64,000 nt of DNA, taken from assembly GCA_032986305.1 (NCBI GenBank), contig GCA_032986305.1_3672.1; one strand, given 5' to 3'. Under the pieces are notes generated by a model. The model was not told the origin of the DNA. It searched no databases and saw nothing but the letters and a program-made list of their open reading frames with translations. This document shows, one piece after another, positions 27,650-43,849 of this stretch (its first letter is position 1; the number at the start of each line of letters is the position of its first letter). The stretch is from a phage. The position numbers were made by a program, and so were the translations under genes.

Positions 27650-27726
27650 GTGGTCTCCACGGAGTGATTCGAACACTCGACCTCCTGATCCCAAATCAGG
27701 CGCTCTACCAAGCTGAGCTACGCGGA
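27650..27726 (-). tRNA. tRNA-Pro (anticodon UGG)
   Basis: hand-folded cloverleaf: acceptor CTCCGCG/CGTGGAG, T-loop TTCGAAT, anticodon loop TTTGGGA, CCA encoded. Confidence 0.8.
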
Positions 27727-27737
27727 GTATTTACTAT

Positions 27738-27812
27738 TTGGTGGCCCTGGGTGGAATTGAACCACCGTCTGGCGATTATGAGTCGCTTGCTTGAACCTTC
27801 CAGCTACAGGGC
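27738..27812 (-). tRNA. tRNA-Met (anticodon CAU; elongator or Ile-lysidine type)
   Basis: acceptor GGCCCTG/CAGGGCC, T-loop TTCAATT, anticodon loop CTCATAA, CCA encoded. Confidence 0.75.
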
Positions 27813-27813
27813 C

Positions 27814-27889
27814 TTGGTGCTGATGGCAGGACTTGAACCTGCAACCTATTGATTACAAATCAATTGCACTACCAATTGTGCTACATCAG
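27814..27889 (-). tRNA. tRNA-Thr (anticodon UGU)
   Basis: acceptor GCTGATG/CATCAGC, D-stem GCAC/GTGC, anticodon loop TTTGTAA, T-loop TTCAAGT, CCA encoded. Confidence 0.8.
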
Positions 27890-27894
27890 CAAAA

Positions 27895-27993
27895 AGGTGC
27901 TAGGCGGTGGAATCGAACCACCTATGTATTCAACGACTACCTCGTCTATTTTCAGGATTAAAAATCCTCGCCCTTGCCAAAGGGCTTACCTAG
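27895..27993 (-). tRNA. atypical tRNA-like gene, possibly tRNA-Lys (anticodon UUU) with ~30-nt extra region; may be a pseudo-tRNA
   Basis: perfect 7-bp acceptor pairing GCTAGGT/GCCTAGC, canonical T-arm GGTGG-TTCGATT-CCACC, D-stem GCCC/GGGC, 4-bp anticodon stem with loop TTTTTAA, but ~99 nt long and no CCA. Confidence 0.35.
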
Positions 27994-28091
27994 CTCAGTA
28001 TGTTGACCATGTTGCTAGTCGGCGATGACGACTGTAACATTTGATAATCCGGTTCTGCTTCCGGCTTTCGCTTAATTACAAGGTCAACAAT

Positions 28092-28182
28092 GTGGCGGAG
28101 AGTAATGGAATCGAACCATCATCGAGTCATCCTCAATGGGACGGTTTTCAAGACCGCTTGAGCACCATTGCTCCCTACCCTC
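28092..28182 (-). tRNA. tRNA-Ser (anticodon UGA), long variable arm
   Basis: acceptor GGAGGGT/ACTCTCC, anticodon loop CTTGAAA, extended variable arm, discriminator G, CCA encoded. Confidence 0.7.
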
Positions 28183-28189
28183 CTTTATA

Positions 28190-28218
28190 AATTATACTGA
28201 TAATGACACTGATTTTCG
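28190..28218 (-). promoter_or_regulatory. sigma70-like promoter upstream of tRNA-Ser
   Basis: minus strand TCGAAA-N17-TATAAT, -10 ending 7 nt before the tRNA 5' end. Confidence 0.4.
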
Positions 28219-28296
28219 AGCAGTTAGTGACTAGTATAAACGACGATAAATATCAATGCCATTATCTGTATTATTTACGCATCTAAAAATATAAAT

Positions 28297-28383
28297 TTGG
28301 TGGGGAGTGGTGGAGTCGAACCACCCGAGTCGCAATGACAATAGATTTACAGTCTACACCGCTACCTCTACGGGATAACTCCC
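28297..28383 (-). tRNA. tRNA-Tyr (anticodon GUA)
   Basis: acceptor GGGGAGT/ACTCCCC, anticodon loop CTGTAAA, long variable arm, T-loop TTCGACT, CCA encoded. Confidence 0.75.
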
Positions 28384-28387
28384 CAAT

Positions 28388-28462
28388 TTGGCACCCCGTA
28401 CTGGACTCGAACCAGTGTCAACGGCTTAGAAGGCCGCTGCTTTATCCACTAAGCTAACAGGG
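28388..28462 (-). tRNA. tRNA-Arg (anticodon UCU)
   Basis: anticodon stem-loop GCGGC-CTTCTAA-GCCGT, T-arm ACTGG-TTCGAGT-CCAGT, CCA encoded. Confidence 0.7.
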
Positions 28463-28559
28463 CACTGGGTGGCTTTCTTTTACACCTTAGCCGCCAGAAA
28501 AGGTGGGAGACCATGTTTACAATATTACACTGTTAAGCAAAGTTTGTCAAGAAAATATT

Positions 28560-38873: not shown

Positions 38874-39182
38874 ATGCTTAAAATTTTTATTGTTGAAGAT
38901 AAAGATATCGTCCAGTTGTATGCAAATGAGAATCACAAAGGTATGATTCTGAAGAAGGCAAAAAACCTTCATGAAAACACAATTCAACCGGGTGATGTAA
39001 TTAAGATCTGTGGTTATATGATACCAGACTCCTTGATGAAAATAACCCACCACTGGGGGTCTAATCCGTTCCTTTTTGAAAAGTATTGGGATGTTGAGTC
39101 ACTTATTGCAGAGAGTGATGATGCATTTCATTACAGCATCCAACCATCTTGCAGAATAACTAACAGGAGGGGCTTTGAGTAG
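38874..39182 (+). CDS. hypothetical protein (102 aa)
   Basis: ORF with RBS. Confidence 0.3.
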   Translation: MLKIFIVEDKDIVQLYANENHKGMILKKAKNLHENTIQPGDVIKICGYMIPDSLMKITHHWGSNPFLFEKYWDVESLIAESDDAFHYSIQPSCRITNRRGFE

Positions 39183-40314
39183 AGAATATCCACTTATTGA
39201 ATCTGTAGATTGTCTTGCTGATCTTCTCGAACCTGACGCTATAGTTTATTATGACTTCGACCAGGTTGCATATCAAGCTGCGGCAAGTTGTGAAAAAAGG
39301 ACAATTGAGGTAACACACAAAGCCTCCGGACGCAAGAAGATGTTTAAAACACGAACAGAGTTCTGGGGGCGGCAGAAAAACACCGTTGGTGGTTGGTTAA
39401 AAGCTGAGAATACCAACCGTGAAGCCGCATGTAAAAAGGCTGGAAAGGAGTTTATTCCGTGGACACGCGAAGATTTCGATGTCTTGGATATCCAAACCCC
39501 TGATCCTGTAGAGAACTGCTTACACACAATTAAGTGTAAAGCTAATGCAGTTCTTAACTATCTTGGTATTCCGGAAGAGCGATGTGTCGGGGTGTTGGGA
39601 GGCACAGGTAACTTCAGACTAGATCTTCCAATGCCGGAAAGATACAAAGCCAACCGTAACAATACTCTTCGACCACTGCTGCTTGGAGATGCAAGACAGT
39701 ATCTCCAAAAGCAGTATAATGCTCAAGTGATCAACGGTATCGAGGCTGACGACTGGTTAGCTATCCAGCAATTTGAAGGTTGGAACCACTACCAAAAAAC
39801 AGGAAAGTTCAACAAGTTTATTATCTCTATTGATAAGGACCAAAGAACACTACCGGGGCTTGTGTTCGATCCTATGCGAAACGATAAGGGAGATTTTGTA
39901 AGGGAAACCCCTATGCTGATCGATAACGGTATGGGGAACATCTTCATGAAGCCTAATGGAGAGGTTGGTGGTTACGGAATGCTGTTCTTCGGATACCAAA
40001 TGCTGTGTGGTGACTCTGCTGACAATATCAAGCCGTATCAAGGACTTATCGGTAAGGGTAAGTTCGGGGATGCCTCAGCATTCTACCTACTGTCTCAGTG
40101 CAGCACTCCAAAGGAGATGTGGGTGGCTATTATTGATCAGTACAAGAAGTGGTTCCCGAAAGGTGTTGTTAAGTACACTGATTTCAATGGTATTGATCGT
40201 AGAATTTCCGTAGGTCAATGGATGAGTATAATTTTTGACTGTTTGTATATGAAGCGAACATTCAATGATCAGACAAAACTTGTTAACGTTCTTAGAAATG
40301 TTGGAGCAATTTGA
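39175..40314 (+). CDS. 5'-3' exonuclease / flap endonuclease (FEN-like)
   Basis: GIEADDWLA acidic motif and LCGDSADNIKPYQGLIGKG helix-hairpin-helix-type motif. Confidence 0.6.
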   Translation: MSREYPLIESVDCLADLLEPDAIVYYDFDQVAYQAAASCEKRTIEVTHKASGRKKMFKTRTEFWGRQKNTVGGWLKAENTNREAACKKAGKEFIPWTREDFDVLDIQTPDPVENCLHTIKCKANAVLNYLGIPEERCVGVLGGTGNFRLDLPMPERYKANRNNTLRPLLLGDARQYLQKQYNAQVINGIEADDWLAIQQFEGWNHYQKTGKFNKFIISIDKDQRTLPGLVFDPMRNDKGDFVRETPMLIDNGMGNIFMKPNGEVGGYGMLFFGYQMLCGDSADNIKPYQGLIGKGKFGDASAFYLLSQCSTPKEMWVAIIDQYKKWFPKGVVKYTDFNGIDRRISVGQWMSIIFDCLYMKRTFNDQTKLVNVLRNVGAI

Positions 40315-40646
40315 TGACTAAAAATTCTGTAGATAGTGCAATTATGGAAGCTGTTTTTGAGGATGATCATACAACAGGGACCATTAAAACAAAAAATACA
40401 TTTATTGTTGCCACAGGTATGTGGCGGTTGTATGAAGATGACACTATTGCATACATCTTGTATACTGATGATTACGCAGATGATCGTGTATGGTCTGCTG
40501 TTTTAAAAGAGGATTGTGAGCTGATTGAGGGCGAGCGGTTATGCATGTTCACCAGTGTGGAAACAGATGTTAAGCTTTGCTCTCTCGTCTTGTTCAAAGA
40601 TAAGGCTTATGCTCCTGATGAAGGAGAGGAGGATGAGGAAGCATGA
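40311..40646 (+). CDS. hypothetical acidic protein (111 aa)
   Basis: ORF only. Confidence 0.3.
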   Translation: MMTKNSVDSAIMEAVFEDDHTTGTIKTKNTFIVATGMWRLYEDDTIAYILYTDDYADDRVWSAVLKEDCELIEGERLCMFTSVETDVKLCSLVLFKDKAYAPDEGEEDEEA

Positions 40647-41272
40647 GAGAGCGCCTATTATCCATAGACCAGTCGTTGACACACACAGCTTGCGTTGTAT
40701 GGGACGATGGAAAGCCTGTTCATAAGGTTGTGTTACGAACTCAAAGCTCATCTGCAAAAGAGAAGAAACCAGGGACGGTTTCTTTTGCAACAGCTGCTGA
40801 GCGTATTGACTGGATCTGCAAACAGGTCAGATATTATATCCACACGCACGGAGTTGACACCGTGGTTATGGAAGGGCTTTCCTTTGGATCACGCGGAGAT
40901 GCCACACGTGAACTGGCCGGGTTGTTTTACGGTCTTGAAATTATGCTTTGGGATGCCTTAGCTGATTGTGAAAATGACGGCCTGTTTAAGGTCCACACAG
41001 TGACACCAACAACTGCCAAAAAGTTTGCTCGCAGTCATCTTCCTGAAGAACTTGCTTTTGAGGAGAAGAAAAAGCTTGACAAAAAGACAGGTAAAGAGCA
41101 TACTGTGAAGAAACCTGTTACAATGGATAAAAAGTTGATGGTTAAGGCCTGCGAAGTATCTGAACCGGGGTTCCTAGACGGGATCAATTTGGTACAAGGT
41201 AAGGCCGATCTCGCAGATGCTTATTGGATAGGCAGGGCTCATCTGGAGGGATTATCGCAAAGCGTAAAATAA
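40643..41272 (+). CDS. RuvC-like Holliday junction resolvase
   Basis: N-terminal LSIDQS..ACVVWD, VVMEGLSF, ADAYWIG segments matching the RNase H-fold RuvC acidic-residue pattern. Confidence 0.5.
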   Translation: MRERLLSIDQSLTHTACVVWDDGKPVHKVVLRTQSSSAKEKKPGTVSFATAAERIDWICKQVRYYIHTHGVDTVVMEGLSFGSRGDATRELAGLFYGLEIMLWDALADCENDGLFKVHTVTPTTAKKFARSHLPEELAFEEKKKLDKKTGKEHTVKKPVTMDKKLMVKACEVSEPGFLDGINLVQGKADLADAYWIGRAHLEGLSQSVK

Positions 41273-41829
41273 GAAAGAAAGCTGTCAAAGCCCCAGTTCA
41301 TAACGGGTGGTTAAAAGATTCTAAGGACATAGCCAACTTTCGAAAAGAATTGTCAGAGGAGCAGGATGGTCTTGATCCGATCTTGTGCGAGCCACTTCGT
41401 AAGCCTTGTTTAGATCATGATCATCTGACTGGTCGTTGCAGGGGTGTTTTGTCTCAGTGCACTAATACCTTTGAGGGGTATGTGCTTAAATACTGGATGA
41501 AATACTGTAACGAGTATACAGATTGCAGTTTATCAGAGGCGTTGCGCCGGATGGCTGACTATTTGGAGAAAGACTACAGCGACTTCCCGCTCCACAAAAA
41601 CTACAGAGATGATATGACAAAGTTCTTGAGGAGATGCTCTAAAGCTACGATTATTGCACGAGCAGAATCAGATCTCAATCTTGTCATTAATCCGGAGTGC
41701 ACCAAGCATGAGGCTATTGAGTTCTACATGCAGGAGTTTATAAAGAAAACTGAGGAGAGAGATTTCTATGGGGATGAAAAAGGTATTCAATCCTTGCGAC
41801 TCAGTCCTGATCAGGATGAAATACCGTAA
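41224..41829 (+). CDS. endonuclease VII-like (T4 gp49-type) junction-resolving nuclease; start uncertain
   Basis: signature ..CLDHDHLTGRCRGVLSQCTN..; annotated start is TTG overlapping upstream gene. Confidence 0.55.
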   Translation: MDRQGSSGGIIAKRKIRKKAVKAPVHNGWLKDSKDIANFRKELSEEQDGLDPILCEPLRKPCLDHDHLTGRCRGVLSQCTNTFEGYVLKYWMKYCNEYTDCSLSEALRRMADYLEKDYSDFPLHKNYRDDMTKFLRRCSKATIIARAESDLNLVINPECTKHEAIEFYMQEFIKKTEERDFYGDEKGIQSLRLSPDQDEIP

Positions 41830-41989
41830 CTGGAAAGGTGTTGTTGCAGATCGCTGCGTTACTGAGCCTAATTTATGGTTTGGCTCTACAGAGTATCATA
41901 AAGAAGAGCAGTGGTTGATGCGTGCCTTCGATGTAGACAAGGGCGAATATCGTGACTTCGCTTTAAAAGACATTCTTCAGTTTTACTAA
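41768..41989 (+). CDS. hypothetical protein (73 aa)
   Basis: ORF only. Confidence 0.3.
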   Translation: MGMKKVFNPCDSVLIRMKYRNWKGVVADRCVTEPNLWFGSTEYHKEEQWLMRAFDVDKGEYRDFALKDILQFY

Positions 41990-42001: not shown

Positions 42002-42985
42002 ATGATGACAAAGTTAACTCTTGAGCAAATTTTAACACTAAAGCAACAGGGATACACTAATAGACAAATTGCTCGTGAATTTTTAGGCCGTGAGTCACGT
42101 GAGAGCTGGATCCGACTACAGCTTAAACGTGCACAAGAGAATATGTCAGAGATTGTAGGAGAAGCAACGGAGCGCTTCCTTGAAGAGCACAAAGGTGCTA
42201 AAGTTTGGGTGTATGATACAGAGACATCCCCAACAAACGGCTGGTTCTTTGGGCACTATAAGACCAACATTCAAACCTGTGGTATTGAAGTTATGCCTTA
42301 TATGCTAACTTTCGCAGGTAAGTGGTTAGACAGCCCTAGTGTGGTTGACTGCGCTCTTCCAGATTACAAAATGTGGGATGAGGATATTCACAATGATCTC
42401 GAATTGATTCAGGATTTGTGGTATTATCTGGATAAATGCGATGTCGCAGTAGCCCACAATTCAGGTTTTGACTGCGGGTGGGCCAACCAACGATTTGCAT
42501 TTCACGGGTTGCCTCCAACAAGCCCCTACAAAGATGTTGACACCCTTAAAATGATCAAAAAGGCATTCCGTTTGAATGCAAACACTTTGGAGTATGCATG
42601 CAAATACTTCCAACTGGCCCGACAGAAACTGATTGATCACACATTTGAAATGTGGATCAAGTGTGTCCATGGCGATCTTGAGGCATTTAAACAGATGCGG
42701 GAGTATAATGTTGGTGATATCCTGTCTCTGGAAGGACTGTATTTGCTGGCTCGCCCGTTTGCTAAGCAGCACCCAAACATGTCATTGTACTACCAGGACG
42801 AGGAGCCAAAGGTTCGTTGCCCACGCTGTGGTGGAGAACACTTTCACGAGGAAGAAGCTTTGGCATATACTCAGCTGAGTGCATTTAAAACATACCGCTG
42901 CGAAGGTTGTGGATCTGTTGTTCGTGACCGTAACAACATCCGTACCAGAGAAGAAATGAAAAACACCCTGATTCAGATAATCTAA
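42002..42985 (+). CDS. DEDD-type 3'-5' exonuclease with N-terminal HTH and C-terminal zinc ribbon
   Basis: HTH-like GYTNRQIAREF; exonuclease motifs VWVYDTETS, AHNSGFDCGW, YNVGDILSLEGLY; CPRCGG..CEGCG. Confidence 0.5.
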   Translation: MMTKLTLEQILTLKQQGYTNRQIAREFLGRESRESWIRLQLKRAQENMSEIVGEATERFLEEHKGAKVWVYDTETSPTNGWFFGHYKTNIQTCGIEVMPYMLTFAGKWLDSPSVVDCALPDYKMWDEDIHNDLELIQDLWYYLDKCDVAVAHNSGFDCGWANQRFAFHGLPPTSPYKDVDTLKMIKKAFRLNANTLEYACKYFQLARQKLIDHTFEMWIKCVHGDLEAFKQMREYNVGDILSLEGLYLLARPFAKQHPNMSLYYQDEEPKVRCPRCGGEHFHEEEALAYTQLSAFKTYRCEGCGSVVRDRNNIRTREEMKNTLIQII

Positions 42986-43030: not shown

Positions 43031-43849
43031 TTGAGCAAGAAAGAGTCCAACGACAAATATTACACAAACCCTGAGTATGCAGAATATCTTGTTGGTAAAG
43101 TAAAAGACAAGTATGGGAATTGTGCATACGTTGAGCCTTCTGCTGGAAGGGGTTCTTTTTCAAAACTATTTTCAAAGATACTGTCGTACGATCTAGTACC
43201 AGATCCTGAATTTGAAGGACCAACACAGTGCATTCAGGCAAACTTCTTGGAGGTGCATCCCAAGGCAGATGTCTTCATAGGTAACCCACCATTTGGCAAG
43301 AATTCATCTTTAGCTTGCAAATTCTTTAACCATTGTGCATCATTGCTAGAGCTTGGCGGGGCTATAGCCTTCATATTGCCACGGACATTTGAAAAAATAT
43401 TTTTTGCAAACAAACTGGACATGTCTATGCACCTTGTCTACAGCGAAAGGTGCCCTAAGAACTCGTTTTTACTTAATGGCAAACCTTACGACGTGCCATG
43501 TGTTTTCCAAATTTGGGAGAAAAAGGCGTGCAATAGGGATCCTGTAGAGATTGGAGAGAATAAGTTATTTTCTTTTAGCACTCCAGATGACTACGACTTC
43601 TGTGTAAGACGTGTTGGGTATAATGCTGGAAAAGTATTGGGGGATGATGACCCAAAATCTGAAGAATCGACATATTTCATAAAATCTTTAGTTGACGGTG
43701 TTGACAGAGTGTTTGCCGAATGCTATTCTTCTTTTCAAGAAGAAGCAGGTAAGACTGCTGGAATGAAGAGTATAGGCAAGAAAGAACTACAATACATTTT
43801 GGAGACCCGGTATGATCAAAAGCATAGACTTGACCAAAGAACTTACTGA
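43031..43849 (+). CDS. DNA N6-adenine methyltransferase (TTG start after terminator)
   Basis: motif IV FIGNPPFG, motif I-like EPSAGRGSF. Confidence 0.55.
   Translation: MSKKESNDKYYTNPEYAEYLVGKVKDKYGNCAYVEPSAGRGSFSKLFSKILSYDLVPDPEFEGPTQCIQANFLEVHPKADVFIGNPPFGKNSSLACKFFNHCASLLELGGAIAFILPRTFEKIFFANKLDMSMHLVYSERCPKNSFLLNGKPYDVPCVFQIWEKKACNRDPVEIGENKLFSFSTPDDYDFCVRRVGYNAGKVLGDDDPKSEESTYFIKSLVDGVDRVFAECYSSFQEEAGKTAGMKSIGKKELQYILETRYDQKHRLDQRTY

Follow-up and report, generated by a model that had tools for sequence, protein, structure and literature searches.

A conserved AUC or AUA codon as the likely start of an endonuclease VII-like gene behind a RuvC-like resolvase gene in rV5-like phages

Introduction

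Endonuclease VII of phage T4, the product of gene 49, acts as a domain-swapped dimer on a wide range of branched and mismatched DNA, four-way junctions and Y-structures included; its overproduction is toxic, and expression of its gene is restrained at the translational level. The RuvC resolvases of Escherichia coli, Thermus thermophilus and Lactococcus phage bIL67 (PDB 4KTW) combine an RNase H-like fold with a D-E-D-D catalytic tetrad. RuvC enzymes are homodimers that cut Holliday junctions symmetrically with Mg, and those of phages are described as more promiscuous than bacterial RuvC (PMC3864405). Here we describe a locus at which predicted relatives of both nucleases are encoded by adjacent, overlapping genes. 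It lies in a 64,000-nt stretch of phage DNA (GenBank assembly GCA_032986305.1, contig GCA_032986305.1_3672.1), which at its full length is referred to as the window. Our main concern is the codon at which translation of the second gene, encoding the endonuclease VII-like protein, most likely begins.

Near-cognate start codons are policed by initiation factor IF3. In E. coli, AUA, AUC and AUU initiate translation at roughly 1–2% of the level of AUG (0.02–3% according to context), a protein initiated at AUC carries an N-terminal Met, and the only confirmed natural starts of the AUH type (AUA, AUC or AUU) are those of infC and pcnB, both of which are AUU (Hecht et al., bioRxiv 10.1101/063800). 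The start proposed here would resemble those of infC and pcnB in placing a conserved AUH codon behind a normal Shine-Dalgarno (SD) sequence, with low, IF3-sensitive initiation expected. It differs in being AUC (AUC or AUA in relatives), in belonging to a phage nuclease gene, in having a codon that overlaps or abuts the upstream stop, and in being read from sequence alone. Both genes are already annotated in public records; the new element is the conserved weak start.

Results and Discussion

Candidate starts of the endonuclease VII-like gene

A listing of open reading frames (ORFs) reproduced exactly the pair of frames, of 209 and 201 amino acids (aa), that had been singled out in an earlier sequence-only reading of the window. 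These are given below together with the second gene as we propose it.

40643-41272, plus strand: RuvC-like Holliday-junction resolvase gene, 209 aa, with an ATG start and the stop TAA at 41270-41272
41224-41829, plus strand: endonuclease VII-like ORF as listed, 201 aa, opening at TTG and lying in the -1 frame relative to RuvC
41254-41829, plus strand: endonuclease VII-like gene as proposed, 191 codons, with the stop TAA at 41827-41829

As listed, the two frames overlap by 49 nt. The sequence-only reading had drawn attention to a CLDHDH..RGVLSQC string, which is indeed present (nt 41407-41424 onward), and to the lack of any in-frame ATG between the upstream stop and the conserved core. GTG is likewise absent from that interval, and in frame ahead of the catalytic motif the canonical start codons (ATG, GTG, TTG) are limited to TTG 41224 and TTG 41350. 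The same reading had treated the start of the second gene as uncertain, and GenBank records bear this out by placing it at four different positions. The annotated starts, the SD sequence and the codon that we propose are as follows.

41224, plus strand: TTG, the start in the MiataMamis, LL12 and AlexBoehm records
41245-41249, plus strand: SD sequence GGAGG, inside the RuvC 3' end (last 28 nt)
41251, plus strand: ATT, the start in the original rV5 record DQ832317 (ORF 97; CDS 75509 corresponds to window 41251)
41254-41256, plus strand: ATC (AUC), the proposed initiation codon, spaced 4 nt from GGAGG and lying 16 nt upstream of the RuvC stop
41350, plus strand: TTG, the start in the Mangalyan record
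41497, plus strand: ATG, the start in the VB-EcoM-WM record

Judged from its conservation among relatives, ATC 41254 is the most likely start of the endonuclease VII-like gene, in place of the TTG that opens the frame. A start here would give a 19-nt overlap with the RuvC gene. The earlier claim that no good ribosome-binding site precedes the conserved core does not hold, since GGAGG at 41245-41249 stands at the spacing from ATC 41254 that this phage prefers: among ORFs of at least 50 codons, GGAGG-N4-ATG is the commonest GGAGG-ATG geometry in the window (7/17 pairs). The TTG start of the exonuclease gene at 39175 is also preceded by GGAGG-N4. The curators of the original rV5 record likewise picked a non-canonical start, the neighbouring ATT. 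Their choice of start codon is not commented on in the rV5 genome paper (PMC3606486), and no discussion of the start codon or of the pairing of RuvC with endonuclease VII was found in that paper or in the other Vequintavirinae papers searched.

Conservation of an SD sequence and AUH codon among relatives

The comparison set comprised 25 related viral contigs, 12 named phages and 17 metagenome loci with both genes, across which RuvC identity ranged from 28 to 100%; unnamed contigs and loci are given below by L numbers. The 37 viral and GenBank loci were scanned for an SD sequence followed within 3–9 nt by an in-frame start-like codon; the 17 metagenome loci were inspected by eye. The scan returned exactly one site per locus except for L022, with two, and for S4-7 and 121Q, with none. 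The sites always stood at the head of the basic tract, and the metagenome loci showed the same site. At the codon aligned with ATC 41254, the relatives carry the following.

ATC: rV5-like phages, the L006 group, the Seunavirus/Mydovirus group, L103, L104, L108, L017, L019, L021 and L114
ATA: Henunavirus pEa55/L020, L028, L029 and Stephanstirmvirinae KP13-16
ATG: L018 (MARTSKRK), L023/L112 (MAVRP.RRRR), ABPH49 and LTH01
GTG: L022/L111 and L024-27
TTG: PBES02 and phiA019

Where RuvC and endonuclease VII-like genes abut, a spacer of 4 nt (6 nt in L021) separates GGAGG or GGGGG from an in-frame ATC or ATA, which is itself followed by the basic tract, an arrangement found in approximately 14 diverged lineages. 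In these AUH relatives the codon aligned with ATC 41254 is always ATC or ATA, unlike the codon before it. Residues encoded across the purine motif in the RuvC frame vary (EG, ED, QG, QE, GG), whereas the nucleotides do not. In L021, the motif and the endonuclease ORF are in different frames and a stop lies in between; thus, the motif is conserved as RNA and not as a Gly-Gly pair.

Several relatives offer little choice of canonical codon. In L104 and L114 the interval from the in-frame stop to the conserved Trp is free of ATG, GTG and TTG, and no canonical start precedes the basic tract in the Seunavirus/Mydovirus group, L017, L019-21 or L029. In-frame stops lie 0–6 codons upstream of the SD/AUH site in L005, L021, L029, L103 and L114. 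The DNA upstream of the first canonical start nevertheless varies among relatives in the manner of a coding region read in the endonuclease frame. In the Seunavirus/Mydovirus group, the stretch that runs from the RuvC stop to the first canonical start has 0/2/8 variable sites at codon positions 1/2/3, with 7 synonymous versus 2 non-synonymous codon columns, a pattern that is gone in the other two frames. The same stretch compared between L019 and L020/pEa55 gives 1/1/10, with 9 synonymous versus 1 non-synonymous column.

Furthermore, in relatives whose two genes are separated by a gene of PHROG 12410, and in L018, where RuvC was not found, a canonical start stands at exactly the aligned codon. 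In these canonical-start relatives the SD sequence is GGAGG with a spacing of 5–7 nt, or GAGG with 9 nt in L018. In other relatives the AUH codon forms a junction with the RuvC stop itself.

ATAA: L019, L020, pEa55 and L114
ATAG: L028, L029 and KP13-16
TAATC: L021

These junctions are like the ATGA and TAATG overlaps of translationally coupled genes, but with ATA or ATC in place of ATG, and Acinetobacter phage ABPH49 has the canonical TAATG at the same RuvC/endonuclease VII junction. A single A-to-G transition would turn ATAA into ATGA; ATA is nonetheless kept in four lineages. The window differs from ATGA and TAATG overlaps in that its proposed start lies 16 nt upstream of the stop and not on it.

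Several points weigh against a start at ATC 41254. The GGAGG-N4-ATH motif is not enriched within the window (3 matches versus 5.25 expected); because its count there is not rarer than chance, the case for the start site is carried wholly by the comparative data. Many of the loci are close relatives, so that independent AUH lineages, at about 14, are fewer than loci. L005 (identical to contig L099), the close relative in which a stop follows the TTG, is just one metagenomic genome, and no further genome with such a stop was found among GenBank phages. N-terminal proteomics, ribosome profiling or N-terminal sequencing bearing on the start was not found in the literature searched. A conserved Ile within an N-terminal extension would give a similar picture if ribosomes reached the frame from upstream in some other way, and in the GGGGG lineages L017, L019 and L114 a -1 slip of tRNA-Gly is conceivable. 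Finally, low expression, toxicity and coupling are properties that we infer for this gene.

Alternative starts and frameshifting

A start at TTG 41224 would yield the 201-aa protein, the first 10 residues of which overlap the conserved C-terminal helix of RuvC. It is the only canonical start upstream of the basic tract and Trp29 in the window and is conserved in the approximately 120 near-identical rV5-like genomes sampled, but this conservation is explained by RuvC, as the TTG is formed by the taT TGg (Tyr-Trp) codons of its conserved AYWIG motif. The window sequence has no SD upstream of TTG 41224; in L005, a 91%-identical relative, an in-frame TAG follows three codons after the equivalent TTG, and that TTG is missing in most diverged relatives, with Seunavirus, Mydovirus, Henunavirus and others having no start codon at or near the position. 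Residues 1-9 of the 201-aa form are also modeled by AlphaFold2 (AF2) with pLDDT <50. The opening of the second gene at this TTG, as given in the sequence-only reading, is not supported: the codon is probably not the true start, and we consider its use unlikely. Initiation one codon upstream of ATC, at ATT 41251, has in its favor that E. coli is proven to use ATT, if rarely, as a start (infC, pcnB), that the curated rV5 record uses it, and that the conserved ATH likewise stands behind ATT or ATA in L011, L103, L104, L019, L020 and L114. Against this, ATT 41251 lies only 1 nt after GGAGG, a spacing seen in 0 GGAGG-ATG pairs (ORFs of at least 50 codons) compared to 7 for 4 nt, and its codon is not conserved: relatives have att, ttt, tat, gat, agt, gct, cct, ttc, ata or aaa at this position, followed in every case by ATC or ATA. 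We therefore rate it as quite unlikely. Both TTG 41224 and ATT 41251 are possible starts in this particular phage, but neither is backed by the comparison with relatives. A shorter protein without the basic tail, begun at TTG 41350 or further downstream, was rejected as highly improbable. TTG 41350 is a canonical codon upstream of the LDHDH motif, and the homologue in jumbo phage 121Q is without a basic tail. However, no SD precedes TTG 41350, the region upstream of it shows the coding signature described above, and homologous protein sequence starts well before it, at the basic tract just ahead of Trp29, which excludes it as a start. The truncation would drop family-conserved residues 29-42 (including W29 and R40), which align with T4 endonuclease VII from residue 9 onward and lead into model helix 33-46, part of which would also be lost.

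A fusion of the two nucleases was considered first, because RuvC ends GTA AAA TAA and because, wherever the two genes are adjacent, the endonuclease lies in the -1 frame of RuvC. Here tRNA-Lys on A_AAA, with TAA in the A site (41266-41272), would slip by -1 near the end of RuvC and produce a RuvC-endonuclease VII protein. The window has A_AAA_TAA and some relatives G_GGG_G, and in dnaX an SD-like element upstream of the slip site stimulates -1 frameshifting. The slippery sequence is not conserved, however, as most relatives lack an A-run or G-run in the shift window, and in L021 the -1-frame stop ends 1 nt before the RuvC stop, which leaves no room to shift. Distance from the SD is fixed to the ATH codon and variable (2–20 nt) to the RuvC stop, and a stand-alone protein with the same N-terminus exists in the separated-gene relatives and, behind TAATG, in ABPH49. 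The -1 relation is itself also produced by ATGA- and TAATG-type overlaps. No fusion was seen among close protein homologues or among the best 150 of 1698 representative hits, where the only long hit was P0169, with a LAGLIDADG-like segment inside, and the predicted RNA structure at the junction (minimum free energy -19.6 kcal/mol, z=0.51) was no better than that of shuffled sequences. We rejected this frameshift fusion as decidedly unlikely.

Proposed translation of the second nuclease

We think it fairly probable that two separate nucleases are made and that the endonuclease VII-like gene is translated from AUC 41254 behind GGAGG, at a low level and coupled to RuvC; as to actual use of AUC, low expression and coupling, we infer all three from the arrangement of the genes. 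By this scheme, fMet-tRNA would initiate at the near-cognate AUC 41254 of a stand-alone, 191-codon gene whose SD is embedded in the 3' end of RuvC. Translational coupling is indicated by a start on or just before the RuvC stop. The weakness of AUC and AUA (about 1–3% of AUG), together with a site on or within 16 nt of that stop, suggests that, of the ribosomes that complete or traverse RuvC, a small, fixed share would make the second nuclease. The result would be a low, fixed ratio of endonuclease VII to RuvC, by which a broad-specificity, potentially toxic branch-cutter is held down. Such a low dosage would make sense given the broad action, the toxicity and the translational restraint of the T4 enzyme.

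It is possible, though on balance doubtful, that the AUC/AUA start at the RuvC stop is a selected dosing device and that limitation of IF3 late in infection could raise expression. If true, this would be a family-wide conserved AUH start outside infC and pcnB that controls a toxic nuclease, the two resolvases would act as a stoichiometrically tuned pair and not as redundant enzymes, and the locus would show how phages keep a dangerous branch-cutting nuclease at low dose. A conserved AUH start in several phage genera would also be a clean natural model in which to study near-cognate initiation and the coupling of termination to reinitiation. On the practical side, more than 100 Vequintavirinae genomes, many of them from phages put forward for therapeutic use, carry annotations that place the start of this gene at no fewer than four different, probably wrong positions, and gene callers limited to ATG, GTG and TTG cannot find the likely one.

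The RuvC-like resolvase

The assignment of the two products to the RuvC and endonuclease VII types, made in the sequence-only reading, was supported by profile searches for both proteins. The 209-aa protein matches PHROG 159 'RuvC-like Holliday junction resolvase' (E=5e-39), but no Pfam family at E<=1, so that evidence from fold and PHROG was needed; the lack of a Pfam RuvC match sets it apart from known RuvC resolvases. Distant homologues P0078 and P0080 do carry PF02075, and a profile built from 29 homologues matches the RuvC sequences of the PDB weakly (E=0.46). This 29-sequence alignment shows no variation at E77, D189 and D192, the last two of which belong to a C-terminal DxxDA motif, and at least 90% conservation of D9. 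The predicted tetrad is the counterpart of D7, E66, D138 and D141 of E. coli RuvC and is encoded as follows.

40667-40669, plus strand: catalytic codon of D9, by alignment
40871-40873, plus strand: catalytic codon of E77, by alignment
41207-41209, plus strand: catalytic codon of D189, by alignment
41216-41218, plus strand: catalytic codon of D192, by alignment

The AF2 model (pLDDT 92.6, pTM 0.89) shares the RNase H-like fold of RuvC. Its top 11 PDB fold matches are all bacterial RuvC (T. thermophilus, Deinococcus radiodurans, Pseudomonas aeruginosa, E. coli); RuvC of Lactococcus phage bIL67 is also matched, and TM(target) across the RuvC matches is 0.72–0.79. A further difference from RuvC resolvases is an insertion of about 45 residues (approximately 131-176), modeled as a beta-hairpin plus helix and missing in the most distant of the aligned homologues. 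Collectively, sequence and model indicate that the first gene encodes a RuvC-fold resolvase with an intact D-E-D-D tetrad.

At one comparison locus, L016 (IMGVR_UViG_2974574029_000001, 1930-2534), the RuvC homologue is found by tblastn in two segments, in frames 1 and 3, while the near-identical L015 is intact. This indicates a frameshift, a sequencing error or a pseudogene in L016.

The endonuclease VII-like protein

Pfam Endonuclease_7 (PF02945) matches the second protein with 31.6 bits against a cut-off of 23.6, and PHROG 423 'endonuclease VII' matches it with E=6e-37. T4 endonuclease VII (1e7d, 1en7, 2qnc) is matched by a 40-homologue profile over its residues 9-155/157 (E=7e-15), and D64, H65, H67, N81 and E84 (201-aa numbering) are invariant among the 40. 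These correspond to the catalytic beta-beta-alpha-metal residues D40, H41, H43, N62 and E65 of the T4 enzyme (gp49; PDB 1EN7, 1E7D, 2QNC) and are encoded in the window as follows.

41410-41424, plus strand: LDHDH catalytic motif
41464-41466, plus strand: codon of N81
41473-41475, plus strand: codon of E84

The AF2 model has a pLDDT of 84 and shows a two-domain fold that includes the C-terminal helical domain. Foldseek aligns it with 1e7l, 1en7 and 2qnf at probability 1.0, with TM(target) 0.66–0.74 over 152–157 columns, although sequence identity to T4 endonuclease VII is only about 23%. The zinc-binding cysteines of the T4 enzyme, C23, C26, C58 and C61, align with D51, L54, S77 and T80 of the window protein. 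Cysteine is not conserved at any column of the 40-homologue alignment, and the T4 zinc site is thus not matched. The second gene therefore appears, from sequence and model, to encode a full-length homologue of T4 endonuclease VII that is a zinc-less variant, and both nucleases look catalytically competent.

Two further features set the window protein apart from its T4 counterpart. Its family has a Lys/Arg-rich N-terminal tail of 25–35 residues, which T4 endonuclease VII is without; in the proposed product this basic tail reads (M)AKRKIRKKAVKAPV. In addition, the window gene lies directly behind a RuvC gene and overlaps it, unlike T4 gene 49. The last ~20 residues (GDEKGIQSLRLSPDQDEIP) occur only in rV5-like phages. 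Among the homologues, protein P0169 (446 aa) matches endonuclease VII in two stretches with a weak LAGLIDADG-like segment between them, and may be an endonuclease VII interrupted by an intein or homing endonuclease.

Pairing of the two nucleases

RuvC and endonuclease VII-like genes are adjacent in the Vequintavirinae genera Vequintavirus, Seunavirus, Mydovirus and Henunavirus as well as in the unclassified Acinetobacter phage ABPH49 and one Stephanstirmvirinae phage, and adjacent genes usually share overlapping start and stop. The two genes are close together in Aeromonas phage phiA019 and Vibrio phage S4-7. In Certrevirus-like phages they are nearly adjacent, with one gene between (L090, 510-1151; L091, 507-1157; also L022-L027). 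This inserted gene, of about 215 codons, belongs to PHROG 12410 and has no assigned function, and endonuclease VII starts there with GTG, TTG or ATG. We considered the inserted gene as a homing endonuclease and rejected this, as PHROG 12410 has no Pfam domain and is not recognizable as one.

The sequence-only reading had called the presence of both resolvase types redundant. As stated, this is not upheld: the pair is kept across several phage groups and both catalytic sites are conserved, which points to maintenance by selection and argues for non-redundant roles of the two predicted enzymes. One possibility would be a division of labor between a junction-specific RuvC and an endonuclease VII engaged in broad-specificity debranching and mismatch cutting. 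The conserved pairing thus raises the question of how recombination, debranching before packaging and mismatch cutting are split between them.

Phage and operon setting

The window belongs to a Vequintavirus (rV5-like coliphage). A 4-kb region around both genes is 99.4% identical to Escherichia phage MiataMamis and 98–99% identical to approximately 120 rV5-like phages of the genus Vequintavirus. The RuvC-like and endonuclease VII-like genes sit within a tightly packed, plus-strand replication/recombination operon, in which the ATG of the RuvC-like gene overlaps the stop of the preceding gene (ATGA). Their neighbors are listed below.

39175-40314, plus strand: 5'-3' exonuclease gene, operon member
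40311-40646, plus strand: small protein, function not assigned, between the exonuclease and RuvC-like genes
41768-41989, plus strand: small WYL/SH3-like protein gene, directly after the endonuclease VII-like gene
42002-42985, plus strand: DnaQ-like exonuclease gene, operon member

The endonuclease VII-like gene overlaps at its 3' end with the small gene that follows it (41768-41989), which belongs to PHROG 3715 and has weak WYL/SH3-like Pfam matches. Annotators also differ over the start of this small gene, which is placed either at ATG 41768, with GAGGAG upstream, or at ATG 41816. TTG starts behind GGAGG-N4 are apparent in at least two other genes of the operon region, the exonuclease at 39175 and the ORF at 43031; in the replication module of this rV5-like phage, starts other than ATG may therefore be common.

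Twenty GenBank records (MG0656xx) labeled 'Campylobacter phage', host Campylobacter jejuni, are 98% identical to the rV5-like phage over the 4-kb query. Such identity to an E. coli phage suggests that the hosts in this data set are mislabeled or that coliphages contaminate it.

The window also contains a tRNA cluster at 27651-28463 on the minus strand (Pro, Met(CAT), Thr, Ser, Tyr and Arg). The tRNA(CAT) at 27739-27813 was considered as a special, phage-encoded initiator and rejected, because its G1:C72 end is paired and the GGG/CCC anticodon stem is missing. Its anticodon arm, GCGAC-UCAUAA-UCGC, resembles that of E. coli tRNA-Ile2, and the tRNA may decode AUA after lysidine modification and not Met. 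The positions 27896-27994 on the minus strand hold a 99-nt 'tRNA-???' predicted by ARAGORN, whose anticodon would have four bases (atcc) and which falls below the gathering score of the Rfam tRNA model; the prediction could reflect a tRNA that is degenerate or carries an insertion, or it could be false.

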